IMG/VR virus record: IMGVR_UViG_3300042306_000801
Origin: an uncultured virus (IMG/VR IMGVR_UViG_3300042306_000801)
Lineage: Duplodnaviria > Heunggongvirae > Uroviricota > Caudoviricetes
Reading direction: 5' to 3' (one strand)
Length of the DNA: 64,000 bases
Of this stretch, positions 2,892-32,386 are shown one piece after another; the first letter of the stretch is position 1; each line of letters starts with the position of its first letter. Position numbers and translations under genes: made by a program. The notes beneath the pieces were generated by a model that worked only from the letters and a program-made list of their open reading frames with translations, had not been told where the DNA came from and searched no databases.

Positions 2892-4286
2892 ATGCAGAGC
2901 GAAGACACACTTTCAAAATACGGACAATCATTTCAAACCAAAGTAATATCTGCTTTGCTTACCGATGATAGAATGATGAATACATTATCCGATGTTATTC
3001 ATAAAAAATTCTTTGAATCGGAAGCGAATAAGTGGATAGTGGATGAGATTGTATCGCATCATAAAGATTACAATAAAGTGCCTTCGTTGGACGTATTCAA
3101 AGTTCAGGTATCTAAAATTGATAATCAATCTTTACAAAAAACAATTGTAGGACAACTTAAAGAAATATATGGACAAATCGGTAATACCGATTTTGAATAT
3201 ATCAAAGATGAGTTTACTTCATTTTGTATTAATCAAAATTTAAAAAATGTAATCGTACAATCTATTGACTTGTTGAAATCAGGTAACTATGATAAAATCA
3301 AAGACTTGGTTGATAAGGCAATGAAGGTTGGTGTTGATGCCGATTTGGGTATGGATTACCTTATTGATTTTGAAAAAAGGTATGATGAAACAAAAAGAGA
3401 TACTGTTGGTACTGATTGGGAATGTATCAATGAACTTATGAATGGTGGATTAGGACCTGGCGAATTGGGGGTTGTAGTTGCACCATCCGGTGTTGGTAAG
3501 ACTTGGGTACTATGTGCTTTGGGAGCTGCAGCTGTAAGAGCTGGAAAGACTGTTGCACATTATTCATTGGAATTATCACAAGAATATGTTGGTTTACGAT
3601 ATGATACTGTATTTTCACACATACCATCACATGAATTGGTTGATAAGAAAGAAGAAGTATTAACATCTCTAAAAAAATTAAGAGGTAAACTTAAAATTAA
3701 ATACTTCCCACCAAAAGGTGCATCTTCAAAAACAATTCAAGCTCATCTAGAAAAGATGATAGCAGCCGGTAATAAGCCCGATTTAGTTATTGTGGATTAC
3801 GCTGATTTGTTATTATCACATTCAAACAAAACCGATAGTACATACGCTGAACAAGGTGGAGTGTACATTGATTTAAGAGGAATGAGTGGTGAGTTGGGAA
3901 TACCAATTTGGACAGCATCACAAACAAATCGTTCAGCAATTGATAGCGAAGTTATTGAAGCTGATAAGATTGCAGATTCATACGCTAAAGTAATGAACGC
4001 TGACTTTATTATGAGTTTGAGTAGAAAAGCTAAAGATAAGTTGAGTAACACTGCAAGAGTACATGTTATGAAAAACCGATTTGGACAGGATGGTATAACA
4101 TTCCCTGCCAAAATGAATACAACCGATGGTACATTGGAAGTATATACAGCATCATCAACCGATGGGGTATTAGCACAAAAGGCTAGTGCAAATGGGAATG
4201 AAATAGAAAGACAACTATTACATAAGAAATATGTTGAAAGTATGCCGGTTGGAAACAAACCGCAACTGGTTACGGGATTAGGATAA
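2892..4286 (+). CDS. Replicative DNA helicase (DnaB / T4 gp41-like)
   Basis: GGLGPGELGVVVAPSGVGKT Walker A, SLEL, IVDYADLL, WTASQTNR, IADS, KNRFG. Confidence 0.93.
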   Translation: MQSEDTLSKYGQSFQTKVISALLTDDRMMNTLSDVIHKKFFESEANKWIVDEIVSHHKDYNKVPSLDVFKVQVSKIDNQSLQKTIVGQLKEIYGQIGNTDFEYIKDEFTSFCINQNLKNVIVQSIDLLKSGNYDKIKDLVDKAMKVGVDADLGMDYLIDFEKRYDETKRDTVGTDWECINELMNGGLGPGELGVVVAPSGVGKTWVLCALGAAAVRAGKTVAHYSLELSQEYVGLRYDTVFSHIPSHELVDKKEEVLTSLKKLRGKLKIKYFPPKGASSKTIQAHLEKMIAAGNKPDLVIVDYADLLLSHSNKTDSTYAEQGGVYIDLRGMSGELGIPIWTASQTNRSAIDSEVIEADKIADSYAKVMNADFIMSLSRKAKDKLSNTARVHVMKNRFGQDGITFPAKMNTTDGTLEVYTASSTDGVLAQKASANGNEIERQLLHKKYVESMPVGNKPQLVTGLG

Positions 4287-4305
4287 CAATTAAAAAACAA
4301 AAACT

Positions 4306-4482
4306 ATGGCAACAAGTCAAGAATTATTTGAGCAAATCAAAGGACATTTTACAACCTTTGAAACAGAACACAATGGTACTAAAAAAGTAAACAAATCAAG
4401 AGCTAGAAAAGCAATTGGTGAGTTGAAAAAATTAGTAACTGCTTATAAGAAAGCTTCAACAGAAGAAGGAAAGGCGGCATAA
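4306..4482 (+). CDS. Small histone H1-like (Hc1-family-like) DNA-binding protein, 58 aa; not in the ORF track
   Basis: Manual translation MATSQELFEQIKGHFTTFETEHNGTKKVNKSRARKAIGELKKLVTAYKKASTEEGKAA. The K..RARK...ELKKL....K.S pattern resembles Hc1-family proteins. Confidence 0.7.
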   Translation: MATSQELFEQIKGHFTTFETEHNGTKKVNKSRARKAIGELKKLVTAYKKASTEEGKAA

Positions 4483-4486
4483 TGAT

Positions 4487-4510
4487 AGGGGAGAGCAACT
4501 CTCCCCTTTC
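4487..4510 (+). terminator. Hairpin / probable intrinsic terminator
   Basis: AGGGGAGAG-CAA-CTCTCCCCT stem followed by a short T-rich tail, immediately after the 4306-4482 ORF. Confidence 0.6.
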
Positions 4511-4670
4511 TATGTTATAATAGACACCTATTTTAACAATTAAAAATATTTTAAAAAAAGTGGATTTTTTATCCACAAACTTGTATTGTTTAGTCAGGCA
4601 CCTCATATTTATCTTTTTAAATTCAGGTTTTCCTGAAAAAATTTACTAAACAATTTAATTTTACAAAACA

Positions 4671-6527
4671 ATGGACATTTCAACACGAATTTTATCAGAC
4701 ATTACGGTGTATATGAAGTACGCTAAGTACCAGCCGGAATTACAAAGAAGAGAAACATGGGAAGAATTGGTTACTCGTAATATGGATATGCATATTAAGA
4801 AGTTTCCAAAATTAGAAAAAGAAATCAGAGAGAACTACAAATTCGTGTATGATAAAAAGGTATTACCTTCAATGCGTTCAATGCAGTTTGCAGGTAAACC
4901 AATTGAAATTTCACCAAATAGAATTTACAACTGTGCATTCGCTCCAGCAGATGATTGGAGAGTGTTTTCAGAAATTATGTTCTTACTATTAGGTGGAACG
5001 GGTGTAGGTTACTCTGTTCAAAAACATCACGTTGATGCTTTACCTGAAATTAGAAAACCAAATGCAGATAAGACAAGAAGATTTCTTATTGGTGATTCTA
5101 TTGAAGGTTGGGCTGATGCGGTATTAGTATTAATGAAAGCATATTTCTTTGGTGGAAGTAAACCACAATTTGATTTCAGAGATATTAGACCAAAGGGTGC
5201 AAGATTAATCACTTCAGGTGGTAAAGCACCTGGACCTCAACCACTTAAAGAGTGTTTGATTAAAGTAGAAGGTATATTAGATGCACACAAAGACGGTGAT
5301 AAATTAGAACCGATTGAAGTACATGATATTATTTGTCATATTGCAGATGCAGTATTGGCAGGTGGTATTCGTAGAGCAGCACTTATTTCACTATTTTCAG
5401 CAACCGATGAAAAAATGATTAGTTGTAAGAGTGGTGCATGGTGGGAAACAAATCCGCAAAGAGGTAGAGCAAATAACTCTGCGGTATTAATGAGACATAA
5501 AATCACGAAAGATTATTTTATGGACTTATGGAAAAGAATTGAAGCAAGTGGAGCCGGTGAACCTGGTATCTATTTAAGTAATGATAAAGATTGGGGAACT
5601 AATCCTTGTTGTGAAATTGCATTAAGACCTTATCAATTCTGTAACTTATGTGAAGTAAATGTAAGTGATATTATAGACCAAACTGATTTGGAAGAAAGAG
5701 TTAAAGCAGCATCGTTCATTGGAACGTTGCAAGCGGGTTATACTGACTTCCATTATTTAAGACCAATTTGGCAAAGAACAACTGAAAAGGATGCGTTGAT
5801 TGGAATATCTATGACCGGTATCGGAAGTGGTGCTATTTTAAAGCATGATATGAAGGCAGCGGCTAAAATTGTTAAAGAAGAAAATAAAAGAGTAGCTGAT
5901 TTAATGGGAATCAACGCTTCGGCAAGATGTACAACTGTAAAGCCTGCCGGAACAACATCATTAACTTTGGGTACATCTTCTGGAATTCACGCTTGGCACA
6001 ATGATTACTACATTCGTAGAGTAAGAGTTGGTAAGAATGAATCAATTTATTCTCATTTAGTATTACATCATCCTGAATTGGTTGAAGATGAATATTTCAG
6101 ACCACATGATACTGCCGTAATTGGTATTCCACAAAAGGCACCAGCAGATGCAATCTTTAGAACTGAATCTCCAATTCAACTATTAGAGAGAGTTAAGAGA
6201 GTGCATAGTGAGTGGGTTAAGCCTGGCCATAGAAGCGGTAACAATACACACAACGTATCTGCAACTGTTTCTATTAGAGAGCATGAGTGGAAAGCAGTTG
6301 GTGAGTGGATGTGGGAAAACAAAGAATTCTATAATGGTCTTTCAGTATTACCGTACGATGGTGGAACTTATATCCAGGCTCCATTTGAAGATTGTACAAA
6401 AGAAAAATACGAAGAACTTATGAAAACATTGCACGATGTTGATTTAAGTAAAGTTATAGAATTAGAAGATACAACTGACTTAAGTGGTGAGTTAGCATGT
6501 GCGGGTGGTGCGTGTGAAGTTAAGTAA
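4671..6527 (+). CDS. nrdJ: Class II (adenosylcobalamin-dependent) ribonucleotide reductase
   Basis: YNCAF, GTGVGYS, AGGIRRAALISL, GEPG, TNPCCEI, QFCNL, TTVKPAGT, and the C-terminal redox pair CAGGAC. Confidence 0.93.
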   Translation: MDISTRILSDITVYMKYAKYQPELQRRETWEELVTRNMDMHIKKFPKLEKEIRENYKFVYDKKVLPSMRSMQFAGKPIEISPNRIYNCAFAPADDWRVFSEIMFLLLGGTGVGYSVQKHHVDALPEIRKPNADKTRRFLIGDSIEGWADAVLVLMKAYFFGGSKPQFDFRDIRPKGARLITSGGKAPGPQPLKECLIKVEGILDAHKDGDKLEPIEVHDIICHIADAVLAGGIRRAALISLFSATDEKMISCKSGAWWETNPQRGRANNSAVLMRHKITKDYFMDLWKRIEASGAGEPGIYLSNDKDWGTNPCCEIALRPYQFCNLCEVNVSDIIDQTDLEERVKAASFIGTLQAGYTDFHYLRPIWQRTTEKDALIGISMTGIGSGAILKHDMKAAAKIVKEENKRVADLMGINASARCTTVKPAGTTSLTLGTSSGIHAWHNDYYIRRVRVGKNESIYSHLVLHHPELVEDEYFRPHDTAVIGIPQKAPADAIFRTESPIQLLERVKRVHSEWVKPGHRSGNNTHNVSATVSIREHEWKAVGEWMWENKEFYNGLSVLPYDGGTYIQAPFEDCTKEKYEELMKTLHDVDLSKVIELEDTTDLSGELACAGGACEVK

Positions 6528-6568
6528 GATGCACGATAACTTGGTACAAAATATAGTAAACGGAATAT

Positions 6569-6769
6569 ATGGCTCGATTCGCGGAAACCGATAAGAACCT
6601 ATATTACTTTGAAGGTAGTAGGGTAGTGTTTACACCAGAATACCACATAGAACGTGGATATTGTTGTGGGAACGGGTGTAGACACTGTCCTTACGAACCT
6701 AAACACATAAAGGGAAATATAGAATTAGAAAAAATATATAAAAAAGAAAACGATGAGCGTAGTAGTTAA
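6569..6769 (+). CDS. Small Cys-rich protein (DUF5522-like)
   Basis: RGYCCGNGCRHCPY motif. Confidence 0.7.
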   Translation: MARFAETDKNLYYFEGSRVVFTPEYHIERGYCCGNGCRHCPYEPKHIKGNIELEKIYKKENDERSS

Positions 6770-7022
6770 AAAATTTGGAGCAGCGTGGTGTGGTCCTTGT
6801 AGAGCATTGGCACCTGTATTAGAGGGGATTAAAAAAGAGTTTGAAGGTAAAGCAACGTTTGTTGAATATGATGTTGATAATTCTCCAGAAGAATCAGAAC
6901 AGTATAATGTTACATCTATTCCATTGGTAATAATTGAAAAAGATGGTGTAGTTTTAGAAAGATTTCAAGGTTTAGCAGCTAAAGTAGCATATATTAATGC
7001 TATTAATGAGGCTATAAAATAA
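6753..7022 (+). CDS. trxA: Thioredoxin
   Basis: WCGPC active site and YNVTSIP cis-Pro loop; downstream of the RNR gene. Confidence 0.93.
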   Translation: MSVVVKKFGAAWCGPCRALAPVLEGIKKEFEGKATFVEYDVDNSPEESEQYNVTSIPLVIIEKDGVVLERFQGLAAKVAYINAINEAIK

Positions 7023-7023
7023 A

Positions 7024-7055
7024 TTTGGTAATATCCAAAAAGTTTCGTAAATTTG
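7024..7055 (+). promoter_or_regulatory. Bacteroidota-type promoter, probably giving a leaderless mRNA
   Basis: TTTG at 7024-7027, N20, TAAATTTG at 7048-7055; the ATG is at 7060. Confidence 0.7.
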
Positions 7056-7059
7056 TTAT

Positions 7060-8517
7060 ATGTGTGGAATAATAGGCGGTAATTGGTTTACTTCTAGTAA
7101 GCAGACCCATACCCATTTACAAAAAATAATTCATAGAGGTAGAGATGCTTCTATTGTAGACGAGATAGACAGTGTCTTTGTTGGGCACAATCGTCTTTCA
7201 ATTCAAGATTTATCTTCAACAGCAAACCAACCAATGTGGAATGGTGATAAGACTGTATGTATTGTATATAATGGAGAGTTGTGGGATAGTAATTACACAA
7301 AAGAATTAAAAGATAAAATTACAATTCCATTTAAAACAAAATCTGATACTGAAATAATTCTTAATGCTTATTGTGAATTTGGAACTGATTCATTCAAAGA
7401 TTTGGATGGGATGTTTTCATTTGCAATAGTTGATACCAAAATTAATAAAATATTTGTAGTTAGAGATTACGTTGGTGAGTTACCTTTATGGTATGCAATT
7501 GATAACGATGGTAAGATGGTATTTTGTTCTGAAAAGAAAGGATTGCCAATATCAGAACTTTATGAAAAGCAAGTAAAGGCAATTTATCCAGGAACTTATT
7601 TAGAATACAACTATAAAACATTAGAACATTCAACACAAACTTATTATAAACTTCCAAATGAAATAATAAATGATGATAGAGAAACTATCGTTACGAATAT
7701 TAGAACAATGTTGGAAGAAGCTGTAAAAGTTAAGATGGTATCAGATGTTCCTATTTGTACTATTCTTAGCGGTGGTATTGATTCCGTTATCACTACATAT
7801 ATTCTTTCTAAAATTAAACCTGATATTGAAGCATTCGTTGTATCAATGGGAGATGGTGATACTAAAAATGATGATATAAAATACGCTAGAATTGCTGCAA
7901 AAGAATTTGGAGTAAAATTGCATGAAATTATTTTAACCGAACAGGATGTTGAAGATGCGGTTAAAGAAACTCTTTATGTTATTGAGCAAGGTAGATGGCA
8001 AAACGTTGGTAGTGCAATTGCACAAATAGCACTATCTAAAAAGATAAATGAGTTAGGATTCAAAGTTGTATTTAGTGGTGACCTATCCGATGAGATATGG
8101 GGTAGTTATGGGCACATTCAAGCGTTCCATTACAAACCCGAAGATTACGATAAGGCCAGAAGAAAATTAGTAGAAGATGTACATAAGACAAACTTCTTAA
8201 CAACAAACCAATCTATTATGTGGGGTGGAACCGTTGAGGTAAGAACTCCGTATAGTTGGAGACCGTTTGTTGAATATACTTTAAATATTCCACCATTATA
8301 TCAAAAAGAAGGTGGACATATGAAACCTCTATTAAGGGCTGCATTCAAAGGTGAGATTTCCGATGAACTATTATATAGACCTAAAGTTTACTTCGCAAAA
8401 GGATGTAGGACAGGTGATATGATGGAAGCTAAAAAAGATATTTTGAAATCTCAATTAAAATCCTTATATTTGTATAAAGACGAACTAAACTTAAATAAAT
8501 TCTTTCAATATGCTTAA
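7060..8517 (+). CDS. Asparagine synthetase B-like glutamine-dependent amidotransferase
   Basis: N-terminal MCGI (Ntn Cys), HRG, GHNRLSIQD, QPM, YNGEL; PP-loop LSGGIDS; SGDLSDEIWGSY; EVRTPY; KPLLR. Confidence 0.9.
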   Translation: MCGIIGGNWFTSSKQTHTHLQKIIHRGRDASIVDEIDSVFVGHNRLSIQDLSSTANQPMWNGDKTVCIVYNGELWDSNYTKELKDKITIPFKTKSDTEIILNAYCEFGTDSFKDLDGMFSFAIVDTKINKIFVVRDYVGELPLWYAIDNDGKMVFCSEKKGLPISELYEKQVKAIYPGTYLEYNYKTLEHSTQTYYKLPNEIINDDRETIVTNIRTMLEEAVKVKMVSDVPICTILSGGIDSVITTYILSKIKPDIEAFVVSMGDGDTKNDDIKYARIAAKEFGVKLHEIILTEQDVEDAVKETLYVIEQGRWQNVGSAIAQIALSKKINELGFKVVFSGDLSDEIWGSYGHIQAFHYKPEDYDKARRKLVEDVHKTNFLTTNQSIMWGGTVEVRTPYSWRPFVEYTLNIPPLYQKEGGHMKPLLRAAFKGEISDELLYRPKVYFAKGCRTGDMMEAKKDILKSQLKSLYLYKDELNLNKFFQYA

Positions 8518-9031
8518 TTTTGTAAAAGCTGAAAAAGGTACAACTGAAATGATTGAAGCTGTAAATCAGGCTTCAACTATTATTGATTTGTATCCTGAAA
8601 TATTTCCACACTTATATAAGCAAGGCTTTAAGTTGGAAAAGTATATTGAAAAAGGTGGTATGATACTGCAAGACGGTGTTGTTATCACTTTTGGAAAATA
8701 TAAATCTCATGGTAGAATGAGTAAAAATGCTACCACATATAAAAAGAAAGGAGATTATATTCTTCATCAAATTGCAACAAATCACTCTAAAACAAATGCT
8801 TCAAAAGAAGTATTAGATGAGTTTGTAGAATATTGTAAATCACAACACGCAGAGAATCTATTCTTAACCGTTAGGGCATTCAATTATAGAGCCGTATTGT
8901 TTTATGAGAGATATGGTTTTGTAAAAGATAGTGATATAACTTGGACTAGTAAAAAAGACGGAGTTATAAATGGTATAGTATTCAGATTGAGATTGGTTGC
9001 AAACAAAAATATAGAAACAGTATGTATTTAG
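8510..9031 (+). CDS. GNAT-family acetyltransferase
   Basis: ILHQIAT and LFLTVRAFNYRAVLFYERYGF (GNAT motif B). It overlaps both neighbouring genes. Confidence 0.8.
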   Translation: MLNFVKAEKGTTEMIEAVNQASTIIDLYPEIFPHLYKQGFKLEKYIEKGGMILQDGVVITFGKYKSHGRMSKNATTYKKKGDYILHQIATNHSKTNASKEVLDEFVEYCKSQHAENLFLTVRAFNYRAVLFYERYGFVKDSDITWTSKKDGVINGIVFRLRLVANKNIETVCI

Positions 9032-10251
9032 AATATTTTGATAAATTTAAAGGTATGCAGCCATACCTATATATAAATTCAGAAGAATGGACTTATATTA
9101 AAAAAACATTTGATGTTAATGATGTTAAAGAATCATTAGCAGAAGTGTGTATGGCATACGAATTGCCTTTTGCTGAAATAAGTGAAGATGATGCTAGAAA
9201 AGAATATCTTGCATTAAAAGGTATTCGTTGGAATGAATTATTTACCGAAGGTGAATGGTTTCCAAGAAAGGCATCAGATTTTAGATACTCTTTAGATTTT
9301 CAAGGTAAACCACAATACATTCGTAGATTAAATACCGGAAATGATGCATCAAATCATTTTCAACAAGCAAATCGTTGGAGTGTAGATGGAACGGTATCAC
9401 CTGGACCTTCTAGAACTTGGGCAAGCAAAGAATTTATGACAACTCTAATGGGTGGGTTATATACTCTTAAATTTGATGAAGTTGGTAGAAACCAATTAAG
9501 AGTGTGTTTAAGTTTGAGAAAATATATTTGTTCTCAATTTAAACCAAATGCAGCAAAAGTATTGTATGATTTTTATGCAGCTAAAAATGTATTAGATATA
9601 TCAGCGGGATGGGGTGATAGATTATGTGGATTCTTTGCATCTGAAAATGGTGAACATTATGTAGGAATAGACCCTAGAAAAGAAAATCATCCAATATATC
9701 GTAAACAGGCCGAATTCTATACTAAACACAATTCATTCTTTGAAACTGAAAAGAAAGCTGATTTTATAGAATCACCGGCGGAAGATGCAGATTTAACTCA
9801 ATATAAAGAGCACTTTGATATTGTATTTAGTTCACCACCGTATTTCAACGTAGAGAGATATTCTTACGATGATACTCAAAGTTGGGTTAGATATAAAAAT
9901 ATTGATGCTTGGAATAAAGAGTTTTTACATAAAACAATTGCAAACGTTTGGCCTACTTTAAAGAAAGGTGGTATCCTCGCAGTTAATATTGCAGATGTAT
10001 ATGCAAGTTCCAAAGGAGATGGTAAAGGTTATAAAGAGATATGTAATCCAATGAATGATTTTATTCAAACATTAGGTGCAGAATACGAAGGATGTTTGGG
10101 AATGGAAATGGCGAAAAGACCTGGTAGTGCTGGAGCGGGTTCTATCATAGAAGGAGATGAGGAAAGATATAGCGAAGAAGCTTTGAAAAAGGCGGAAGAA
10201 GCCGGTGATAAAACATTTTGTGAACCTATTTGGATTTGGAAAAAATTATGA
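9022..10251 (+). CDS. DNA amino-methyltransferase-like protein (SPPY type), paralogue 1
   Basis: VLDISAGWGDR (SAM-binding motif I), GIDP, FSSPPYFNVERY (motif IV), LKKGG..AVNIAD, EPIWIW. Confidence 0.8.
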   Translation: MYLEYFDKFKGMQPYLYINSEEWTYIKKTFDVNDVKESLAEVCMAYELPFAEISEDDARKEYLALKGIRWNELFTEGEWFPRKASDFRYSLDFQGKPQYIRRLNTGNDASNHFQQANRWSVDGTVSPGPSRTWASKEFMTTLMGGLYTLKFDEVGRNQLRVCLSLRKYICSQFKPNAAKVLYDFYAAKNVLDISAGWGDRLCGFFASENGEHYVGIDPRKENHPIYRKQAEFYTKHNSFFETEKKADFIESPAEDADLTQYKEHFDIVFSSPPYFNVERYSYDDTQSWVRYKNIDAWNKEFLHKTIANVWPTLKKGGILAVNIADVYASSKGDGKGYKEICNPMNDFIQTLGAEYEGCLGMEMAKRPGSAGAGSIIEGDEERYSEEALKKAEEAGDKTFCEPIWIWKKL

Positions 10252-11462
10252 TAAAAGAATACTTCAAAAAATTTTATGGGATGGAGCCGTATCTTCGTAT
10301 TGAAAAAGACGAATGGCAAACTATTCTCAAAACTTATACGAAAGAAGAAATCATAGATGAACTTTCAGAAGTATTGCATACATACCCACCACCAATACCA
10401 ACTATCACAGAAGAAGATACGTTAGATGCTTATAAAAAATTAAAAGGAACTTGGTGGCCTGATATTTTAGTAGAAGGTAAATGGTTTCCGCGTAATGAAA
10501 GAGTATCAAAGTATCCATTAACTTATGATGGTTCTGAATATTATTTTAGAAGAACTAATGTAGGTAATAATGCATCCAATCCATTTCATATAGAAAATCG
10601 TTGGAAGGTTGATTGGGTTAGAACACCATCGGGTTGGAAAACTTGGCAAACGGTAGAAGGTATTAAAACAATCGTAAGAGCATACTTTACTTTGGATAAA
10701 ATGTTATTGGATGTAAATTTGGAAACTCTTAAAATGGCAACTACATTAAGAAAGTATGTTGCATCACAATTTAAACCTGTTATTGCAAAAGCATTCTATG
10801 ATAAGTTTCAAAGTAAAAATGTTATGGATTTTTCAGCAGGATGGGGTGACCGTTTAGCTGGATTCTTTGCAGGAGAAACAACAAAGTTTTATTTAGGTAT
10901 TGACCCAAATAGTAGTAATCATCCTAACTATCAAAAACAAATTGAGTTCTATAAAAAACATACAACATTCTTTGAAGAAGATAAAGATGCAAAGATGTTA
11001 CAAGCGGCGGCTGAAGATGTAGATTATTCAGAGTATGAAAACTTCTTTGATACAATCTTTACTTCACCACCGTATTTTAATACGGAAAGATACAGCTTTG
11101 ATGATACTCAAAGTTGGATTAGATATAAAAAGTTTGATGATTGGAACAAAGGGTTCTTTCATACAACATTAGACAAAATTATACCAACCTTAAAAAAAGG
11201 TGGAATACTGGCAATCAATATTGCGGATGTATTTTCTGCACCTGATAAGGGGTATGTGGACATAGTTAATTCTATGAACGATTTCCTTCAATCCAGAGGG
11301 TTAATTTATAAAGGGTGTATTGGTATGGAAATGACAAAAAGACCCAATAGTGGGGGTGCTGGGATGGCTGTATCGGAATATTACTCCGATGAATTGAAGG
11401 AAAAGGCTGAAGAAACAAAAAACCACGCATTTGGAGAACCAATATGGATTTGGGAAAAATAA
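10248..11462 (+). CDS. DNA amino-methyltransferase-like protein (SPPY type), paralogue 2
   Basis: VMDFSAGWGDR, GIDPN, FTSPPYFNTERY, EPIWIW. Collinear with paralogue 1, with an ATGA start/stop overlap at 10248-10251. Confidence 0.8.
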   Translation: MIKEYFKKFYGMEPYLRIEKDEWQTILKTYTKEEIIDELSEVLHTYPPPIPTITEEDTLDAYKKLKGTWWPDILVEGKWFPRNERVSKYPLTYDGSEYYFRRTNVGNNASNPFHIENRWKVDWVRTPSGWKTWQTVEGIKTIVRAYFTLDKMLLDVNLETLKMATTLRKYVASQFKPVIAKAFYDKFQSKNVMDFSAGWGDRLAGFFAGETTKFYLGIDPNSSNHPNYQKQIEFYKKHTTFFEEDKDAKMLQAAAEDVDYSEYENFFDTIFTSPPYFNTERYSFDDTQSWIRYKKFDDWNKGFFHTTLDKIIPTLKKGGILAINIADVFSAPDKGYVDIVNSMNDFLQSRGLIYKGCIGMEMTKRPNSGGAGMAVSEYYSDELKEKAEETKNHAFGEPIWIWEK

Positions 11463-11463
11463 A

Positions 11464-11495
11464 TTTGGTAGATTCAATAAAATATCGTATATTTG
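11464..11495 (+). promoter_or_regulatory. Bacteroidota-type promoter
   Basis: TTTG at 11464-11467, N20, TATATTTG at 11488-11495; identical over 36 nt to the copy at 43770-43805. Confidence 0.75.
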
Positions 11496-11527
11496 TATTC
11501 ACAATTTAAAATTTAAACATAAACAAA

Positions 11528-12247
11528 ATGAACAAAGCAAAATTAACAAGATTTATCCAAAAGTATAGTTTGGGTGGATTAGTAGAATCAGTTGCATGGA
11601 AAACGGAAGATAACAAATTAGTTACTCGTTTCATATCCGATGACAAAACTGTATTGGGTGAAATTCAATTAGATAATTTCACATTTAGTGCACCTGATTT
11701 AGGAGTGTACACAACATCAGCATTATCAAAATTACTTTCGGTAGTTGGTGAAGATATTGAGTTGGAAGCACAAGAAATTGAAGGTAAAGCTGTAAACCTT
11801 TTCGTTAAAAGCGAAAACACAAAGGTTCAGTTTCAATTGGCAGATTTGGCAGTTATTCCAAATGTACCAGATTTGAAAAAACTTCCTGATTTTGATGTTG
11901 ATATTAATTTTGATGGTGCGTTTATTGATAAATTTATCAAAGCTAAAAACGCATTGAGTGATGTTGATACATTTACTATTCTTACTGAAAAGAAAGAATT
12001 AAAAGTTGTATTGGGTTATTCAAATATTAACTCAAATAGAGTTGTGTTCGTAGTTGATAAAGCATATGCAGGTGATGTTAAACCAATTTCTTTCTCAGCA
12101 AAGTATTTGAAAGAAATCTTAACTGCAAATAAAGAGGCAACTGCGGTTGTACTTAAAGTATCAACACAAGGTATTTCGCACGTTGAATTTAAAATTGATG
12201 ATTTCACTGCAAAATATTACCTAGTAGAACAACAATTAACTGCATAA
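11528..12247 (+). CDS. Sliding clamp (T4 gp45 / PCNA-like)
   Basis: 239-aa beta-rich protein with FSAKYLKEIL and C-terminal AKYYLVE, in a replisome context near PolB and the clamp loader. Confidence 0.7.
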   Translation: MNKAKLTRFIQKYSLGGLVESVAWKTEDNKLVTRFISDDKTVLGEIQLDNFTFSAPDLGVYTTSALSKLLSVVGEDIELEAQEIEGKAVNLFVKSENTKVQFQLADLAVIPNVPDLKKLPDFDVDINFDGAFIDKFIKAKNALSDVDTFTILTEKKELKVVLGYSNINSNRVVFVVDKAYAGDVKPISFSAKYLKEILTANKEATAVVLKVSTQGISHVEFKIDDFTAKYYLVEQQLTA

Positions 12248-13818
12248 TGAGTTTTAATTACAAAAAGAAATATTTCTACGAAAAGAATGACTGGTTGTAC
12301 GAACCGGAAGTAAACTTATTATATGAAGATGTTCTTAAAATGCCATTCGCCGATTTTGAAAGGTGGGTGGCATTTTTTAGAGAACTTGCAGTAAGAGTTT
12401 GGAATGAAACCGGAGCACCACCGAGAATCGGTGTTGATGAGGGTGAAATGATTGAACAATTTTCTAAACTACAAACTTACAAAGTAGAAAAGTTTGAAGA
12501 AAAAGATGATGACGGAAACGAAGTCATCTTTAACTTCAATAAGTTTGCAACACCAGTTAATCAATTCTTTCCTGCGATGTATAAGACGGGAATCGGTGGT
12601 TCGGCTTATGATAAGCCAAAACCATCAATCTACGATGTATTCGCAGATGATGCCTATTTGCCAGAATTTGTAAAACAAATGAGAAGATTAACTAGGCAAG
12701 ATGGCATGTATCGTTTTTCTAAAACCTTACATTTAGATAATCCAGAATTTCATAATTCACATATCCAAAGTGGTAAAGAGTGGATTGAAAAATGGGCAGC
12801 GGGTAATAAGAAAGAAGGATATGGATTTTGTTTATCACAAGCGGATAGCAAAGTTCCATCACCGCCAATTACTGCACAAGAAGTTAAAGACCTTTATGCA
12901 GCTGGTATATTGAAGTATGAAAACATATCTTCATTAAAAACTGCGGATTGGGGTGAGAATATTGATAATTTAGTTGATGTTCCAAAACAACCAATTCAGA
13001 TTAAGATATACCCATTAGGACAAAGAATATTTCCTGAAGCAACTGCTGCATTTCGTATCGGTATGGGTACACAGGCGGTTGTAAACTTCCCACCACTTAC
13101 TGCAAAATATCTTTATAAAAGATTTACGGAACATATTAAAGAACAGGATGTAATTAACATCTATGACCCATCAGCGGGTTGGGGTGGTAGGATATTAGGA
13201 GCATTAAGTCTTGATGATAGAAATATTCATTACATAGGAAATGACCCTAATACCGAAAACTATATTTCAGAAATCGGTAAGACTCGTTATGAGTATCTTG
13301 CGGAGTTCTTTAATAATAAAGTACCGGGTGCGGCTAATCCTTTTTGGGGACACGCTAATACATACGAAATCTTTACAACTGGTTCTGAAATTATTAAAGA
13401 TGAACCGAGATTTCAAAAGTATAAAGGTAAATTAGATTTTGCATTTACTTCTCCACCATACTTTGATAGAGAAAGATATTCTGATGATGATACACAATCA
13501 TTTAAGAAATTTGGTAACTATGAAAGTTGGAGAGATGGATTTTTAAGACCAACATTAGAAACTATATATGAGTATCTTCGTAATGACCGTTATGTATGTT
13601 GGAATATTGCTGATATTAAAGTTGGTCCTGATAAGTTTTATCCATTGGAGCAAGATAGTATTGATATACTTACTCAATTAGGATGTGAGTATAAAGGCAA
13701 ATTAAGAATGACAATGAGTCCAATGACAGGAATGGATTTATCTAAAGCGAAAAATTGTATGCAGATTGAAGGGCAATTTTATAAGTACGAACCAATTTTT
13801 ATATTTTATAAACCATAA
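12247..13818 (+). CDS. DNA amino-methyltransferase-like protein (SPPY type), paralogue 3 (longer N-terminus)
   Basis: IYDPSAGWGGR, GNDPN, FTSPPYFDRERY, WNIAD, EPIFIF. Located between the clamp and polymerase genes. Confidence 0.8.
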   Translation: MSFNYKKKYFYEKNDWLYEPEVNLLYEDVLKMPFADFERWVAFFRELAVRVWNETGAPPRIGVDEGEMIEQFSKLQTYKVEKFEEKDDDGNEVIFNFNKFATPVNQFFPAMYKTGIGGSAYDKPKPSIYDVFADDAYLPEFVKQMRRLTRQDGMYRFSKTLHLDNPEFHNSHIQSGKEWIEKWAAGNKKEGYGFCLSQADSKVPSPPITAQEVKDLYAAGILKYENISSLKTADWGENIDNLVDVPKQPIQIKIYPLGQRIFPEATAAFRIGMGTQAVVNFPPLTAKYLYKRFTEHIKEQDVINIYDPSAGWGGRILGALSLDDRNIHYIGNDPNTENYISEIGKTRYEYLAEFFNNKVPGAANPFWGHANTYEIFTTGSEIIKDEPRFQKYKGKLDFAFTSPPYFDRERYSDDDTQSFKKFGNYESWRDGFLRPTLETIYEYLRNDRYVCWNIADIKVGPDKFYPLEQDSIDILTQLGCEYKGKLRMTMSPMTGMDLSKAKNCMQIEGQFYKYEPIFIFYKP

Positions 13819-13826
13819 CATAATAG

Positions 13827-16379
13827 ATGTATCAAAACATTTTCTTTGAAAGAAATAGAAACTTAATTCATTTGTGGGATGACACTTTAGGGTATCGCAC
13901 ATTTCCATATAAAAAATATGCATATGTTAAAGACCCAAATGGGGAATATCAATCTATGCATGGTGACCGTTTAAGTAAAGTATTTAAATGGGAAAAGGAT
14001 AGTGGTGAGGAATTATTTGAATCAGATGTACCGGAAACCACCAGAGTATTAGTAGACCTATATGGGGATGATACTCCATCTAAAGGTCATATTGTTTTAA
14101 CTTTTGACATTGAGGTAGAAATGATAACAGGACTTCCAAACATTGAAAAAGCCGAAAACGAAATTACTTCAATAGCAGCGTATGATGATGCCACAAAAGA
14201 GTATCATGTATTCGTTGTAGATAAAAAAGGTAAGGTAAACGGTAAATCGTTTCAAAAAGACGGTAGAGATGTGCATGTTCATATCTTTGGTAGTGAGCGT
14301 GAATTGTTGATGAAATACTTAACTTATGTTGAAAGTGTAAACGCAACGATTTGGACGGGATGGAATATTGATTTCTTTGACGTTCCATATCTTTATAATC
14401 GTATTAAGAATGTATGTGGCGAAAATCAAGCCAATCGTTTATCTTGTATAGGTAAAACATATTGGTCACCTTATCGTAATCGTTATAGTATTGCGGGTGT
14501 GAGTATTATGGACTATATCGGTTTGTATAAACGATACAACTTTGGTTTAGAGAGTTCATATACTCTTAATCATATCGCTATGAAAGAATTGGGTAGAGGT
14601 AAGGTTGAATATGAGGGAAGTTTGGATGACTTATTTGAGGATGATTTAGAAAAGTTTATTGAATATAACATTACTGACGTTGAGTTGGTGGTATCAATGG
14701 ATACCAAACTTCAGTTTATTGAATTAAGTAGAGCGATTTGTCATTCTGGATTTACACCATATGAAGATTATATTTTCTCATCAAAGTATTTGGAAGGAGC
14801 TTGTTTAGCTTATCTTAAAAAGAAAGGATTGGTAGCACCTAATAAGCCAAAGAATCACAAAGATAAACTTGCAGAACAGGCTGAAGCTGGTGAAGAAAAA
14901 TTTATTGGGGCATATGTTAAAGAACCAATTGTTGGTAAGTATGATTGGATTTATGACTTGGACTTAACATCTCTATATCCATCAATCATTATGACCTTAA
15001 ATATCTCACCTGAAACAAAGGTTGGTAAGATTTCAAATTGGGATCCTGAATCTTGGGTTAGGGGTGAAGATAGACAATATACGATTGTTGGTAAAACAAA
15101 AGAGTTTACATATAATAGAAAAGAATTAGAAGAAGTAATTAGAGATAATCAATTAGGTGTTGCTGCAAATGGTGTGTTATATACACAAAAGAAACCTGGT
15201 TTGATTGCAGATATTTTAGATACTTGGTTTAAACAAAGGGTTGAGTTCAGAAAGTTGGAGAAGAAGTATGGTGAGGCGGGTGATACTGAAAAATATGAAT
15301 TCTATGGTAAGAGGCAGTTGGTACAAAAGATTCTTTTGAACTCAATGTATGGTGTGTTAGGACTTGTTGCATTTAGATTCTATGATATTGATAATGCAGA
15401 AGCAGTAACGATTACCGGTCAAACTGTAATTAAGAAAACTGCCGAAATGGCAAATCTTAAATACCAAAAAGAGTTGGGTACAAAAGACGATTATAATGTT
15501 TACATTGATACCGATTCAATTTATATGATGGCAGAACCTTTGGTTAAATTTAGGTATCCTGAATATAAAACATTTGACCAAACTAGAATGGCATCTGAAG
15601 TTAATATCGTTGCAGAAGAAACTCAAGCATTCTTAAATTCATTTTATAACTTACTAGCGGAAAGATTCTTTTGTATTCCAAAAGAGAAACACCGCTTTGA
15701 GATTAAGAAAGAGTATATCAGTAAAGCAGGATTTTGGGTAGCAAAGAAACGATACGCACAATGGATGATTTTGAAAAATGGAATTCCGTGTGATAAGTTG
15801 GATGTTAAAGGATTGGATGTAGTTCGTTCATCATTCCCAAAAGCATTTCAGGAGTTTATGGCTAAAATGTTGAAAGATATTTTAATGGGTAAAACCAACG
15901 AAGAAATAAATGAATCACTTTTGGAATTTAAAAAGAGTATCTATACACTTCCGATAAATAAAATCGCAAAAGGTGGAGCTATTAAAGAATTGAGTAAATA
16001 CGATAAAGGTAAGTGGAGAAAAGATAGTGGATTGGCGATTGCTAATTTTGAGAAAGGAACACCTGCACACGTTAAGGCTGGAATTGCGTATAATAGATTA
16101 CTTAAATTCTTTGAATGTCCGTTTAAACATGAACCTATTAGAGATGGTGAAAAAGTTAAATGGGTATATCTTAAAAGTAATCCATTGGGAATAGATACTT
16201 TGGCATTCAAAGATTATAATGACCCAAAGGATGTATTGGATTTCATTGATAAGTACATAGATAGAGATGAAATATATAAAGCAGAATTAGAAAATAAACT
16301 AAATGACTTCTTCGGTGCTCTCAAATGGGAAATGGCATCGGTAGAATCACAAAACGCAAAAAAGTTTTTTGAATTCTAA
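13827..16379 (+). CDS. Family B DNA polymerase
   Basis: Exo I FDIE, Exo II GWNIDFFD, Exo III YNITD; DLTSLYPS, KILLNSMYG, YIDTDS, KKRY, KGLDVVRSS; C-terminal KKFFEF. Confidence 0.96.
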   Translation: MYQNIFFERNRNLIHLWDDTLGYRTFPYKKYAYVKDPNGEYQSMHGDRLSKVFKWEKDSGEELFESDVPETTRVLVDLYGDDTPSKGHIVLTFDIEVEMITGLPNIEKAENEITSIAAYDDATKEYHVFVVDKKGKVNGKSFQKDGRDVHVHIFGSERELLMKYLTYVESVNATIWTGWNIDFFDVPYLYNRIKNVCGENQANRLSCIGKTYWSPYRNRYSIAGVSIMDYIGLYKRYNFGLESSYTLNHIAMKELGRGKVEYEGSLDDLFEDDLEKFIEYNITDVELVVSMDTKLQFIELSRAICHSGFTPYEDYIFSSKYLEGACLAYLKKKGLVAPNKPKNHKDKLAEQAEAGEEKFIGAYVKEPIVGKYDWIYDLDLTSLYPSIIMTLNISPETKVGKISNWDPESWVRGEDRQYTIVGKTKEFTYNRKELEEVIRDNQLGVAANGVLYTQKKPGLIADILDTWFKQRVEFRKLEKKYGEAGDTEKYEFYGKRQLVQKILLNSMYGVLGLVAFRFYDIDNAEAVTITGQTVIKKTAEMANLKYQKELGTKDDYNVYIDTDSIYMMAEPLVKFRYPEYKTFDQTRMASEVNIVAEETQAFLNSFYNLLAERFFCIPKEKHRFEIKKEYISKAGFWVAKKRYAQWMILKNGIPCDKLDVKGLDVVRSSFPKAFQEFMAKMLKDILMGKTNEEINESLLEFKKSIYTLPINKIAKGGAIKELSKYDKGKWRKDSGLAIANFEKGTPAHVKAGIAYNRLLKFFECPFKHEPIRDGEKVKWVYLKSNPLGIDTLAFKDYNDPKDVLDFIDKYIDRDEIYKAELENKLNDFFGALKWEMASVESQNAKKFFEF

Positions 16380-16398
16380 ACTTTTTTTCGTATATTTG
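16368..16398 (+). promoter_or_regulatory. Bacteroidota-type promoter
   Basis: TTTG at 16368-16371, N19, TATATTTG at 16391-16398. Confidence 0.65.
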
Positions 16399-16417
16399 TA
16401 AAACAAAATAAAATAAT

Positions 16418-16810
16418 ATGGCAAAGGCTAAAAAAACAAAAAAAGAAGAAGTAGTTGAACTAGAGCCGATTGGTGAAGTTAAACTAGAACAAAAAAAATA
16501 TGAAGATTGTGAATGGTGTTTCCAATTTGACGAAGATGAACCACAAGTGTTTGCTTGGACTGATCCTGAAATTAGTGCAGATGAGAATCCTAAAATCATT
16601 TTTGAAATAACTAATGGGGAAAATTCATATATCACATTCACAAACGGTAAATCAGGAAAAACATTTAAAATTTACGCTAGAGAAATTTCAGATGCTGGAA
16701 AAGAAATGAGAGAAGCTCAAAGACAGGCATTTAAAAACTCTCAAGCTGATTTAGAAAACTTTGATAAAAACATGGAAGATTATGCAAGTGAAAATAAAGA
16801 AACTGAATAG
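16418..16810 (+). CDS. Hypothetical protein
   Basis: 130-aa ORF following a promoter; no recognisable motif. Confidence 0.6.
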   Translation: MAKAKKTKKEEVVELEPIGEVKLEQKKYEDCEWCFQFDEDEPQVFAWTDPEISADENPKIIFEITNGENSYITFTNGKSGKTFKIYAREISDAGKEMREAQRQAFKNSQADLENFDKNMEDYASENKETE

Positions 16811-17246
16811 TAACGCAGTAATTCCAACATACGCAAAAGATGGCGATGCTGGAATGGATTTAGTAGCAACTGAAATCCTTAAAGATACACCTGAACAAAT
16901 CACATATGGAACAGGATTGGCAATGGAAATTCCTAAAGGATTTGTAGGATTAGTATTTCCTCGTTCATCAATCAGAAAAACTGGTTTACAATTAAGTAAT
17001 TCGGTTGGTGTAATTGATAGTGGGTATAGAGGTGAACTACAAGCTACCTTTAATAAAATATTTGGTGGTGAAGGGTTTTATGATGAAACGGTAGAAACTA
17101 AAGTTCCTGTTAATGACTTTTATAAAGTAGGAGACCGTATCGCACAAATTATGATTATTCCACATCCTGAAATTGAGTTTAATGAAGTAGATGAATTATC
17201 AAATACAGAAAGAGGTGAAGGTGGATTCGGCTCAACTGGAAATTAA
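16782..17246 (+). CDS. dut: Trimeric dUTPase
   Basis: AGMDL, PRSS, GVIDSGYRGE, GDRIAQ, RGEGGFGSTG; ATG at 16782. Confidence 0.96.
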   Translation: MQVKIKKLNSNAVIPTYAKDGDAGMDLVATEILKDTPEQITYGTGLAMEIPKGFVGLVFPRSSIRKTGLQLSNSVGVIDSGYRGELQATFNKIFGGEGFYDETVETKVPVNDFYKVGDRIAQIMIIPHPEIEFNEVDELSNTERGEGGFGSTGN

Positions 17247-17257
17247 AAAATAAAAAT

Positions 17258-18199
17258 ATGTTTGAATTTAAAGAAGAAGAACAAATAAATCATTCACTTT
17301 GGGTAGAAAAATATCGCCCATCTAAATTGGATGATTATGTTGGTAATGAACATTTGAAAAATAAAGTAGCAGGTTATATAGAAACCGAAGATGTACCACA
17401 TCTTTTGTTCTTTGGAAAAGCCGGTACTGGTAAAACAACATTGGCGAAATTGATTATCAAATCAATTGATTGTGATTATATGATTCTAAACGCATCAGAT
17501 GAAAACAACGTTGAAACTGTAAGAACCAAAGTAAAGAATTTTGCATCATCTATGGGATTCAAAAAGTATAAAATTATTATACTTGATGAGTTTGATTATA
17601 TGACTCCAAACGCACAAGCGATTTTGAGAAACTTAATGGAAACATTTAGTAAACATTGTAGATTCATTTTGACGTGTAACTATGTTGAAAAAATTATTGA
17701 ACCTATTCAAAGCCGTTGTCAAACTTTTCAAATAACTCCACCTACTAAAAAAGATGTAGCTATTCAGATGAGTAAGATTTTAAGAGCAGAAGATGTTCAG
17801 TTTGACCCAAAAGATTTAGTTCCGATTATTGATTCTTCTTATCCCGATATTCGTAAGATTATTAATACTTGTCAATTAAACTCTCTTAAAGGTAAATTGC
17901 AAGTAGATGTTCAAAATCTTTTAGAGAATGATTACAAAATGAAAGTTTTGGAAATTCTTAAATCAAAAGATGATAAGAGAAACAAATATATGAATGTTAG
18001 ACAAGCTATTTTAGATTCAAAGGCAACTGATTTTTCTGACCTTTATACATTACTATATGATAAGGTTGACGAATATGCGGGAGAAAATACAGCAAACGTT
18101 ATTCTTGTATTAGGAGATGGAGTAGCTAAATCAGCAGTAGCAATTGATAAAGAAATTATTGCAGCGGCAACATTAATTCAAATTTTAAATTTAATATAA
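17258..18199 (+). CDS. Clamp loader ATPase subunit (gp44 / RFC small subunit-like)
   Basis: WVEKYRP, GKAGTGKT, LNASD, ILDEFD, QSRC. Confidence 0.93.
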   Translation: MFEFKEEEQINHSLWVEKYRPSKLDDYVGNEHLKNKVAGYIETEDVPHLLFFGKAGTGKTTLAKLIIKSIDCDYMILNASDENNVETVRTKVKNFASSMGFKKYKIIILDEFDYMTPNAQAILRNLMETFSKHCRFILTCNYVEKIIEPIQSRCQTFQITPPTKKDVAIQMSKILRAEDVQFDPKDLVPIIDSSYPDIRKIINTCQLNSLKGKLQVDVQNLLENDYKMKVLEILKSKDDKRNKYMNVRQAILDSKATDFSDLYTLLYDKVDEYAGENTANVILVLGDGVAKSAVAIDKEIIAAATLIQILNLI

Positions 18200-26683: not shown

Positions 26684-26689
26684 TAAAAT

Positions 26690-32376: not shown

Positions 32377-32386
32377 AACACAAATT

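Follow-up and report, generated by a model that had tools for sequence, protein, structure and literature searches.

Among the replication genes of an uncultured lake-water virus (IMG/VR record IMGVR_UViG_3300042306_000801), of which a stretch of 64,000 nucleotides was analysed at full length (the window), five genes form a real, recurrent, and uncharacterised module. They encode an AsnB-like amidotransferase, a GNAT acetyltransferase, and three S-adenosylmethionine- (SAM-) dependent transferases with SPPY and GWG(D/G)R motifs, named MT1, MT2, and MT3 and carrying the collective label METHYLTRANSFERASES in this report. The linkage of these genes is well supported. As to their joint function, we give an even chance to the reading that they constitute an “install and tailor” module for the modification of phage DNA bases. 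The mechanism favoured here, in which aminocarboxypropyl is placed on a base amino group and then acetylated and amidated, is put forward tentatively.

Four of the five genes are packed head to tail. The AsnB-like glutamine-dependent amidotransferase (7060..8517, + strand, 485 amino acids (aa); PF00733 3.2e-47, GATase_7 1.2e-29) is followed by the GNAT acetyltransferase (8510..9031, + strand, 173 aa; PF13673 25.7 bits with a cut-off of 23.6, PF00583 22.1 bits with a cut-off of 20.7), by MT1, of the SPPY/GWGDR type (9022..10251, + strand, 409 aa), and by its tandem paralogue MT2 (10230..11462, + strand), which starts at TTG 10230 or at ATG 10248. The overlaps AsnB/GNAT, GNAT/MT1, and MT1/MT2 measure 8, 10, and 22 nucleotides (nt), the last being reduced to 4 nt if ATG 10248 is the start. 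MT3 (12247..13818, + strand, 523 aa), a longer paralogue of the GWGGR type, lies between the sliding clamp and PolB genes. The initial annotation of the window had given this overlapping order and the place of the third paralogue, and both are correct. It had also put one promoter before the gene block, which finds no backing: a sigma-70-type scan gave no site in the 37-nt spacer between the thioredoxin and AsnB genes, no search having been aimed at phage-specific promoters. Over positions 4200-17500 the same consensus scan returned 44 promoter-like sites, fewer than the shuffle mean of 64, and the best terminator-like hairpin upstream of AsnB (4487-4507) is located 5′ of the ribonucleotide reductase (RNR) gene.

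The association of these genes is most evident in close relatives. Linkage was counted over IMG/VR loci, uncorrected for kinship. Thirty-seven loci were fetched with AsnB (82-100% identity), two of which end too early to be scored, and AsnB>GNAT>MT1 are contiguous in 35/35 of those with enough downstream DNA. The trio occurs in two flank arrangements, with thioredoxin upstream or with PolB-clamp-RFC upstream. When MT1 was used to fetch 80 loci (58-100% identity, with an MT1 orthologue in all 80 by construction), MT1 stood among replisome genes in 80/80, and the AsnB orthologue, GNAT, and MT1 were contiguous in 36/80. An MT2 orthologue (at least 60% identity) is present in 30/80 and a full-length MT3 relative in 31/80, and 12/80 carry a different AsnB-like gene (34-45% identity) at a distance of 2-6 kb. 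Conservation of the neighbourhood had been proposed at the outset as a check; it comes out positive, and within the clade the order is strict. The AsnB-GNAT-MT1-MT2 block is also inherited or moved as a unit: positions 7060-11464 of the window, exactly AsnB to MT2, are one colinear block with locus L023 at 74.9% nucleotide identity, and the replisome genes around the block in L023 are rearranged and 66-71% identical.

The slot beside MT1 has other occupants in sister phages. Ten sister loci (L015-L019, L056, L048-L049, L070, and L073) carry there a cassette flanking MT1 or MT1-MT2 (e.g., L016:12465-15500 and L073:4572-8248). Its first gene encodes a 232-aa thymidylate-synthase-like protein (PF00303 1e-4; TIGR03283 2e-17, far under the cut-off), its second a 501-aa AsnB-like protein with 34% identity to that of the window, and its third a 279-aa protein weakly resembling pyridoxal 5′-phosphate- (PLP-) dependent enzymes. 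Some of these loci also contain a MazG-like pyrophosphatase. The cassette looks like a nucleotide-level pyrimidine modification route. The PLP-like gene occurs alone between RFC and MT1 in L032, L054, and L067. In two loci whose AsnB is 65-67% identical, an open reading frame of 497-525 aa with no Pfam match is found between GNAT and MT1 (L233:5881-7374 and L244:5578-7155).

The three transferases share a common catalytic core. In their alignment, D192, S194, A195, G196, W197, G198, and R200 of motif I and F269, S271, P272, P273, Y274, and F275 of motif IV are invariant, and motif I precedes motif IV. SAGWG(D/G)R and SSPPYF or TSPPYF are kept in all three paralogues, that is, the SAM-binding glycine loop and the catalytic motif are present. 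MT1 and MT2 align from end to end with 51% identity. In the three-way alignment MT3 reaches 29% identity, and its BLASTP match is limited to the C-terminal 219 residues (32%, 3e-25), the N-terminal part being different. The motifs, their order, and the N-terminal variable region are all as first described. The SPPY proteins, MT1 among them, match phrog_12517, whose function is not annotated. Their match to PF01555 covers only profile positions 2-61 of 221, with 24.8 bits for MT1, 27.6 for MT2, and 19.1 for MT3 at a gathering cut-off of 26.7. SSPPY and TSPPY variants of MT1 were also compared with the presence of AsnB-GNAT, and no correlation was found.

A profile search with the family retrieved 6050 clusters (50% identity) at E<=1e-3 and 626 at E<=1e-30. 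In the 150 best of the 6050 representatives, SPP[YF] is found in 146 and G[WYF]G[DG]R in 145, an occurrence that, judged from these sequences, is far beyond chance. Two types can be told apart among the representatives, namely, GDR proteins of ~370-430 aa, as MT1 and MT2, and GGR proteins of ~510-560 aa, as MT3. The nearest protein-atlas clusters are 77-100% viral and the three best 94-100%; the automatic names of family members read “N4 cytosine methylase”. The family is very large, virus-restricted, and uncharacterised; its class I SAM fold is nearest to the exocyclic-amine methyltransferases, and its motif IV region is like that of N4/N6 DNA methylases.

The AlphaFold (AF2) model of MT1 (pLDDT 93.8) has a class I Rossmann SAM domain as its C-terminal part. 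The top structural matches are the m2G tRNA methyltransferases Trm11/TrmN (Z 15.7-15.8, root-mean-square deviation (rmsd) 2.6-3.0, ~177 residues), which generic class I enzymes trail by one or two Z units, so close as to be a tie (Z 13-16). For the wider group Trm11/TrmN/Trm14 (5e72, 6zxv, 3tma, and 3tlj), all exocyclic-amine methyltransferases, Z is 14.9-15.8 and rmsd 2.6-3.0 over 175-180 residues; the differences are a sequence identity of 15-21%, the lack of a detected THUMP-like N-domain, and the DNA-replication context of the phage genes. Sequence searches of solved structures gave no relative from MT1 alone, and with the profile only 2zie, a “putative modification methylase” (E 0.0089, across motif IV). 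The N-terminal domain of MT1 (~170 aa), folded alone, reached a pLDDT of 85.5 and had no fold match among 48,161 chains (best Z 3.6), which does not imply a novel fold.

Beta-class amino-methyltransferases have motif IV before motif I. With the PF01555 enzymes of this class, N4/N6 methyltransferases such as 2zie, the phage proteins have in common the (T/S)SPPY motif IV followed by a Y...W...GG..-.N..D block and the SAM-binding class I fold. They differ in the short span of the profile match, in the opposite order of the two motifs, in a unique G-W-G-(D/G)-R motif I, and in an N-terminal domain without a fold match. By sequence and model, MT1, MT2, and MT3 are thus SAM-dependent transferases that stem from DNA amino-methylases. 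Neither sequence nor fold tells what they act on or which group they transfer.

The AsnB-like protein has both domains of its class intact, a class II Ntn glutaminase and a PP-loop AMP-forming synthetase. Its N-terminus reads MCGIIGG, with the nucleophile Cys2 invariant in 7 aligned phage homologues, and in the alignment to 1ct9 and human asparagine synthetase (ASNS) the PP-loop LSGGIDS and the catalytic Lys (human Lys-466; RPKVYF) are kept. The protein matches E. coli AsnB (1ct9) at 3e-48 and also human ASNS. It reaches 283.7 bits with TIGR01536 (cut-off 267.1), 285.9 bits with PRK09431, the AsnB equivalog (cut-off 499), and 176.9 bits with TIGR03104 (cut-off 570.1). A control, the AsnB-like protein encoded beside the thymidylate-synthase-like gene in the sister cassette, is likewise over the TIGR01536 cut-off (282.4 bits), and passing this cut-off is therefore no mark of a true asparagine synthase.

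The aspartate pocket is altered. In human numbering the changes are E364D, G365L, D400N, and R403T, with Asp-367 and Lys-466 kept; the SGDLSDE stretch had been flagged from the beginning as a departure from the canonical motif, and E. coli and human AsnB indeed read SGEGSDE. In human ASNS (PMC6748925), Asp-400 completes the aspartate pocket, Lys-466 binds phosphate, and the mutants E364A, E364Q, and D367A are inactive. The residues altered in the phage protein appear from the alignment to be those binding the amino-acid end of aspartate (alpha-amino/alpha-carboxylate). Asn at the Asp-400 position is common to type-B AsnB-like proteins and to gp124 of phage TurkishDelight, the best match in a cultured phage (30% identity, 2e-48). 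These pocket changes and the shared Asn suggest, but do not prove, an acyl substrate different from free aspartate. Bacterial relatives, found in a genome scan with one pattern, amount to 14 loci with 29-34% identity, mostly in actinomycetes. AsnB is 90% identical between the window and L020-L028, against 56% for PolB, 58% for the clamp, and 48% for the adjoining GNAT; this high conservation fits either a strong constraint or a recent exchange of AsnB alone between phages.

The third component is, on its profile matches, a weak but real GNAT; all six aligned members of the subfamily match PF00583. The Q/RxxGxG/A loop reads SKTNAS in this copy and GNG in relatives. The best solved relatives are N-alpha and polyamine acetyltransferases, with weak E-values of 1e-3 to 1e-2. 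Mom of phage Mu is an acyltransferase-fold protein that modifies adenine N6 in DNA, and an analogy between Mom and this GNAT had been drawn in the initial annotation. It is not borne out: the 6 members gave no match to PF25680 (Mom family) at E<=1, and hhalign of the GNAT against a Mom-family protein from a distant locus, L199, gave a probability of 0.2%.

The GNAT subfamily is tied to the SPPY transferase family across deep divergence. Eighty loci were fetched with a GNAT alignment, and an SPPY-family member lies within 600 bp of GNAT in 52/80 and at 0.6-3.7 kb in 14; the remaining 14 have none, 5 of them with <410 bp of downstream DNA. The adjacency spans three transferase subfamilies and both gene orders. 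AsnB is directly 5′ of GNAT in 41/80. In the 39 GNAT loci without AsnB (GNAT identity 32-44%), 29 have a transferase within 66 bp, mostly of the MT3 type and with GNAT up- or downstream, so that MT3-type genes are the usual neighbours of the distant GNAT subfamily members. Examples are L267 and L288 (gp47-gp46-peptide deformylase-(hydroxylase-like)-GNAT-MT3-type) and L264 (ThyX...PNP-MT3-type-GNAT-hydroxylase-like-EcoRI-like-Dam-like). In the latter, DUF5522 is fused to a PNP_UDP_1 phosphorylase-family domain directly 5′ of the MT3-type transferase (L264:2469-3170). The exceptions are L279 and L281-L283, with dUTPase-AdoMet decarboxylase-GNAT and no transferase, and L276, with a TGT-like gene near GNAT.

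A distant transferase subfamily of the SCGWGDR type, 25-34% identical to MT1, served to fetch a further 80 loci, and its members are again found among PolB, DnaB, UvsX, clamp loader, dUTPase, and redoxin genes. The 134 immediate neighbours scanned in 77 of these loci include 7 canonical PF01555 proteins, 5 MT-A70 proteins, 1 Mom-family protein, 2 AdoMet decarboxylases, 2 2-oxoglutarate (2OG) oxygenases, 2 Asp/Arg-hydroxylase-like proteins, 1 PLP-dependent enzyme, and 1 thymidylate-synthase-like protein. A canonical DNA methylase (PF01555 or MT-A70) is an immediate neighbour in 12/77. GNAT homologues (29-33% identity, full length) occur in only 4/80, directly or one gene 3′ of the transferase and with 4-nt overlaps. 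In L199 (103-2605) an MT-A70 methylase, an SPPY-family transferase, and a Mom-family protein (PF25680, 2e-46) follow one another with 4-nt overlaps, and the Mom-family gene, directly 3′ of the transferase, takes the position that GNAT has in L146 and L179; the GNAT itself is without a detectable sequence relation to it. Over the distant and the GNAT-fetched loci, an AdoMet decarboxylase lies beside family members or GNAT in 8/160. The GNAT depends on the transferase and not the reverse, since the GNAT usually occurs with the transferase and the transferase usually without the GNAT. This asymmetry is the pattern expected if the transferase installs a group and the GNAT tailors it.

For the target, the transferred group, the sequence of reactions, and the final product we propose the following. 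MT1, MT2, and MT3 would descend from N4/N6 DNA amino-methyltransferases and act on the exocyclic amino group of cytosine or adenine, modifying phage DNA during or just after replication, and their differing N-terminal regions probably give different sequence contexts. GNAT and the AsnB-like enzyme would be tailoring enzymes for the group placed on the base. The transferases may donate the 3-amino-3-carboxypropyl part of SAM instead of methyl; GNAT would then acetylate the new alpha-amine, and the AsnB-like enzyme, with ATP and glutamine-derived ammonia, would turn the alpha-carboxylate into an amide. The predicted product is a neutral, capped amino-acid-like side chain. Aminocarboxypropyl is favoured because it is the only SAM-derived group to offer both the carboxylate required by an AsnB-type enzyme and the amine required by a GNAT; its transfer and capping are favoured also because precedents exist in Tyw2 and AsnO-Ngg. 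DNA as the target is supported by the PolB, DnaB, UvsX, and clamp-loader genes around family members and by 2zie as the best solved sequence relative. In other phages, the partners (hydroxylase-like, PLP, and AdoMet decarboxylase) are enzymes that all have amino-acid-like groups or SAM itself as substrates.

Tyw2 (Trm12/Taw2), an enzyme of wybutosine synthesis, transfers the 3-amino-3-carboxypropyl group of SAM with a Rossmann methyltransferase fold (PMC4872110). It shares with MT1 the class I fold and is the precedent for the transfer favoured here; it acts, however, on tRNA and at a carbon atom, and it is absent among the 50 best structural matches listed for MT1. The AsnO-Ngg pair N-acetylates and C-amidates a peptide to give N-acetylglutaminylglutamine amide (PMC8070244). 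Here too an AsnB-like amidotransferase is combined with a GNAT-containing enzyme, and N-acetyl and C-terminal amide caps are placed on an amino-acid backbone; the difference is that Ngg also forms the peptide bond, whereas the phage module has no ligase gene and lies in a replisome context, not one of osmoprotection. Ngg is also far larger than the 173-aa GNAT, and the phage AsnB stays well under the TIGR03104 cut-off.

Install-and-tailor logic is known from thymidine hypermodification in phages M6, ViI, and PaMx11 (PMC8989533), which starts from 5-hydroxymethyl-dU made by a thymidylate-synthase homologue. Those pathways likewise have variable clustered tailoring enzymes (PLP enzymes, an acetyltransferase, and oxygenases). 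Here, by contrast, only a canonical ThyA is found, far from the module. A divergent thymidylate-synthase homologue (hydroxymethylase) is absent from the window, and the sister phages have one beside MT1.

The closest parallel in logic is the CmoA/CmoX/CmoY system of the Synechococcus phage S-B43, in which CmoY, an AsnB homologue encoded next to a homologue of methyltransferases, forms an amide on a carboxylate in DNA (PMC12783734). That paper reports the formation of 5-carboxymethylcytosine and the ligation of glycine, and predicts ammonia for glutaminase-bearing ligases. The pathway acts at cytosine C5 and needs carboxy-SAM, and it is the only published one known to join a methyltransferase homologue to an asparagine-synthetase homologue. 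In S-B43 the genes run CmoA>CmoY>CmoX within a replication module, with a glutaredoxin close by; the order in TurkishDelight is ParB, ParB, C5-methylase homologue, AsnB-like with a glutaminase domain (gp124), and CmoA-like (gp125). The resemblance lies in an operon of overlapping genes within a phage replication module, with a redoxin nearby, where a methyltransferase homologue installs a handle and the adjoining asparagine-synthetase homologue amidates it; in the present module the AsnB-homologous AMP-forming ligase is one small gene 5′ of MT1 in 35/35 loci. The differences are the absence of CmoA and of a C5-methylase, transferases of the SPPY amino-methyltransferase-like type where CmoX has SPPC/R350, and a GNAT as constant partner. 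The absences were established in IMG/VR record G002 (273,997 bp, CheckV 100% complete), a near-identical stand-in for the whole genome of the window: it gave no TIGR00740 match for CmoA at E<=0.01, the positive control TurkishDelight gp125 scoring 2.6e-25, and no PF00145 match for a C5-methyltransferase, and library scans of the window itself also gave no CmoA. The module therefore shares the logic of CmoA/X/Y, not its membership. No description of the module was found within the literature searched on asparagine synthetase/amidotransferase, acetyltransferase, and aminocarboxypropyl in phage DNA modification.

Several findings weigh against a joint action of the five genes on DNA. Most family members stand without AsnB or GNAT and therefore have a function of their own, which could be plain methylation: an AsnB-like gene is missing, in up to 10 kb, from 32/80 MT1-fetched loci (a few of them with short flanks), and is present within 7 kb in only 3/80 distant loci (one on the opposite strand), 77/80 being without. 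The catalytic motifs of MT1 do not change with the presence of AsnB-GNAT, so the family is equally compatible with plain methylation. Methyl and aminocarboxypropyl transfer are not separable by sequence or fold, the MT1 model having no ligand, and the invariant Arg after motif I could merely hold the SAM carboxylate in an ordinary methyl-transfer pose. AsnB passes TIGR01536 and is conserved well above its neighbours, as metabolic genes (RNR) are. The loci behind the linkage counts are not phylogenetically independent, many coming from few phage clades, and tblastn of phage genomes found neither a module carrier nor a full-length MT1 relative among cultured phages. The phage is rich in auxiliary metabolic genes, and the slot could therefore be an insertion hot spot. 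A rival explanation takes the SPPY enzymes for ordinary orphan DNA amino-methyltransferases, which would make N4-methylcytosine or N6-methyladenine (m4C/m6A) in different contexts for restriction protection, with AsnB and GNAT as unrelated auxiliary metabolic genes (asparagine supply, other acetylation) in a permissive slot 5′ of MT1. We hold this explanation to be unlikely, if still one to be reckoned with. The frequent lack of AsnB and GNAT beside family members, the uniform motifs, the TIGR01536 score and high conservation of AsnB, the PF01555 match of the motif IV region, the automatic names, the dozens of auxiliary genes in the phage, and the canonical ThyA and separate canonical PF01555 methylase of its genome agree with it. 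It leaves unexplained, however, the GNAT-transferase adjacency in 52/80 loci with its three subfamilies and both orders, the movement of AsnB-GNAT-MT1-MT2 as a block, and the sister cassettes at the same place; nor does the TIGR01536 score help it much, being matched by the cassette protein, and the aspartate pocket is altered.

The module could also act on RNA, protein, or a small molecule, for example, by a polyamine-type aminopropyl transfer in which GNAT would acetylate polyamines or amino acids and AsnB would synthesize an amide, giving a product that serves packaging or host takeover. That the nearest solved folds are tRNA and rRNA amino-methyltransferases (Trm11, TrmN, Trm14, and METTL5) points this way, as do the AdoMet decarboxylases in 8/160 loci, the speD and MTA/SAH-nucleosidase-like genes of G002, and the N-alpha/polyamine acetyltransferases that are the weak best relatives of GNAT (1e-3 to 1e-2). 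The structural ranking is tied, however, with generic class I enzymes; the SPPY motif and the ERY...W block are of the DNA amino-methylase type; the family is constantly placed among replisome genes, beside canonical DNA methylases and a Mom-family gene; and speD, a common phage auxiliary gene, is not adjacent to the module here. We rate a target other than DNA as improbable. More improbable by far is a carboxymethyl pathway of the CmoX/CmoY type, in which the SPPY enzymes would use host-made carboxy-SAM on N4 of cytosine or N6 of adenine and AsnB would amidate the product to the carbamoylmethyl group known from Mom action on adenine. In its favour, S-B43 likewise has its AsnB homologue adjoining a methyltransferase homologue, in a replication module with a (gluta/thio)redoxin close by, and TurkishDelight gp124 sits between a C5-methylase homologue and a CmoA-like gene. 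Yet the complete 274-kb G002 has no CmoA at the threshold at which the one of TurkishDelight is readily detected, and no C5-methylase; AsnB is only 21% identical to SpCmoY (E 2e-5); and the GNAT is left with no role. The authors of the Cmo work, moreover, report that they found no N4/N6 carboxymethyltransferase candidates with CmoA (PMC12783734). Of the elaborated base foreseen in the initial annotation, the idea itself is supported in part, through the linkage, the CmoY precedent (PMC12783734), and the altered AsnB pocket; the Mom analogy fails, and the carboxymethyl variant lacks CmoA.

The aminocarboxypropyl mechanism can be extended to the whole family. The SPPY/GWG(D/G)R proteins would then be a new, very large family of phage DNA alkyltransferases placing aminocarboxypropyl on exocyclic amines, or aminopropyl where they lie beside an AdoMet decarboxylase, with interchangeable GNAT, AsnB-like, hydroxylase-like, and PLP tailoring enzymes, and the product in the present phage would be an N-acetylated, C-amidated aminocarboxypropyl base. 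This generalization is possible, and we consider it doubtful. Phage DNA hypermodifications defeat restriction and CRISPR-type defences and supply enzymes for DNA labelling. If such a base is made, it would have no known counterpart among the DNA hypermodifications of any organism. If the group that the SPPY enzymes install is not methyl, much of the DNA of aquatic phages would carry an undescribed base, a source of bias in sequencing and in inferred host ranges as well as of new chemistry. Should they be plain methylases, what is left is an abundant methylase family, oddly permuted, whose constant GNAT partner is puzzling.

Every gene of the 64-kb window is on the + strand, and GC is ~33%. A T4-type replication module fills the first 20 kb. 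It begins with a gp32-like single-stranded DNA-binding protein (SSB), UvsX, a 5′-3′ exonuclease, a DnaB-like helicase, the class II RNR (4671-6527), and the DUF5522 protein and thioredoxin (6569..7022, with DUF5522 at 6569-6769) directly 5′ of the AsnB-like gene. After thioredoxin come the five genes, interleaved with the sliding clamp (11528..12247, between MT2 and MT3; a weak PCNA_C match and phrog_12062), and then PolB (13827-16379, downstream of MT3), dUTPase, the clamp loader, and a PD-(D/E)XK nuclease. The position of the clamp beside PolB and RFC is kept in relatives, and a thioredoxin/redoxin gene is directly 5′ of family members in several other lineages too.

Over the 21-kb stretch L012 (window 1-~20,200), the proteins of G002 are 96-100% identical to those of the window, with one small open reading frame at 84%. 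Near-identical DNA was found in 20 metagenome runs (16 studies), which are labelled as lake, freshwater, or crustacean-associated or carry no label. In cultured phages, blastn of positions 7000-14000 against phage genomes gave a single 59-nt match, and tblastn with MT1, MT3, and GNAT gave catalytic-domain matches only (Vibrio, Bacteroides DAC/SJC, and Twort-like Staphylococcus phages) or nothing. Only one ThyA, of the canonical kind (320.9 bits), is encoded by G002, far from the module, and ThyX is missing; thymine is therefore probably made by the normal route. A fourth, canonical PF01555 DNA methylase (48.4 bits, 444 aa) is also encoded far from the module (G002:233898-234347; L304:760-2094, - strand), with a weak sigma-70 region 4-like stretch at its C-terminus. 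The S-adenosylmethionine decarboxylase gene speD (G002:95054-95335, 7e-14), ~2.5 kb past the end of the window, together with a purine nucleoside phosphorylase (348 bits) and a divergent MTA/SAH-nucleosidase-like gene (G002:83317-85773), points to phage handling of SAM by-products.

The rest of the window holds auxiliary genes: glycosyltransferases, sugar-nucleotide enzymes, RuBisCO-like, S21, APS kinase, SET domain, FolE, NifU, and TerC. A 7-deazaguanine route was considered on account of GTP cyclohydrolase I, FolE (53481-54146, 6.4e-51), and rejected: G002 is without TGT/DpdA, its sole QueC match is the PP-loop of AsnB itself, and FolE is probably not part of a 7-deazaguanine DNA pathway. 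A collagen-repeat protein of 1088 aa is followed by a subtilase-family protease (23417-28255). The RuBisCO large-subunit-like gene (32354-33616; PF00016 1.4e-30) lies within a sugar-nucleotide/glycosyltransferase cluster, and a CbbQ/NorQ-type AAA+ ATPase (52101-53306) is found 19 kb beyond it. Ribosomal protein S21 (41510-41776), APS kinase (41805-42275), a SET-domain protein (47389-47805), and a sulfotransferase-like gene (48832-49578) occupy the middle of the stretch, and its end carries NifU-like (56629-57039) and IscA-like (57540-57872) iron-sulfur assembly genes and a TerC-family membrane protein (60360-61010).

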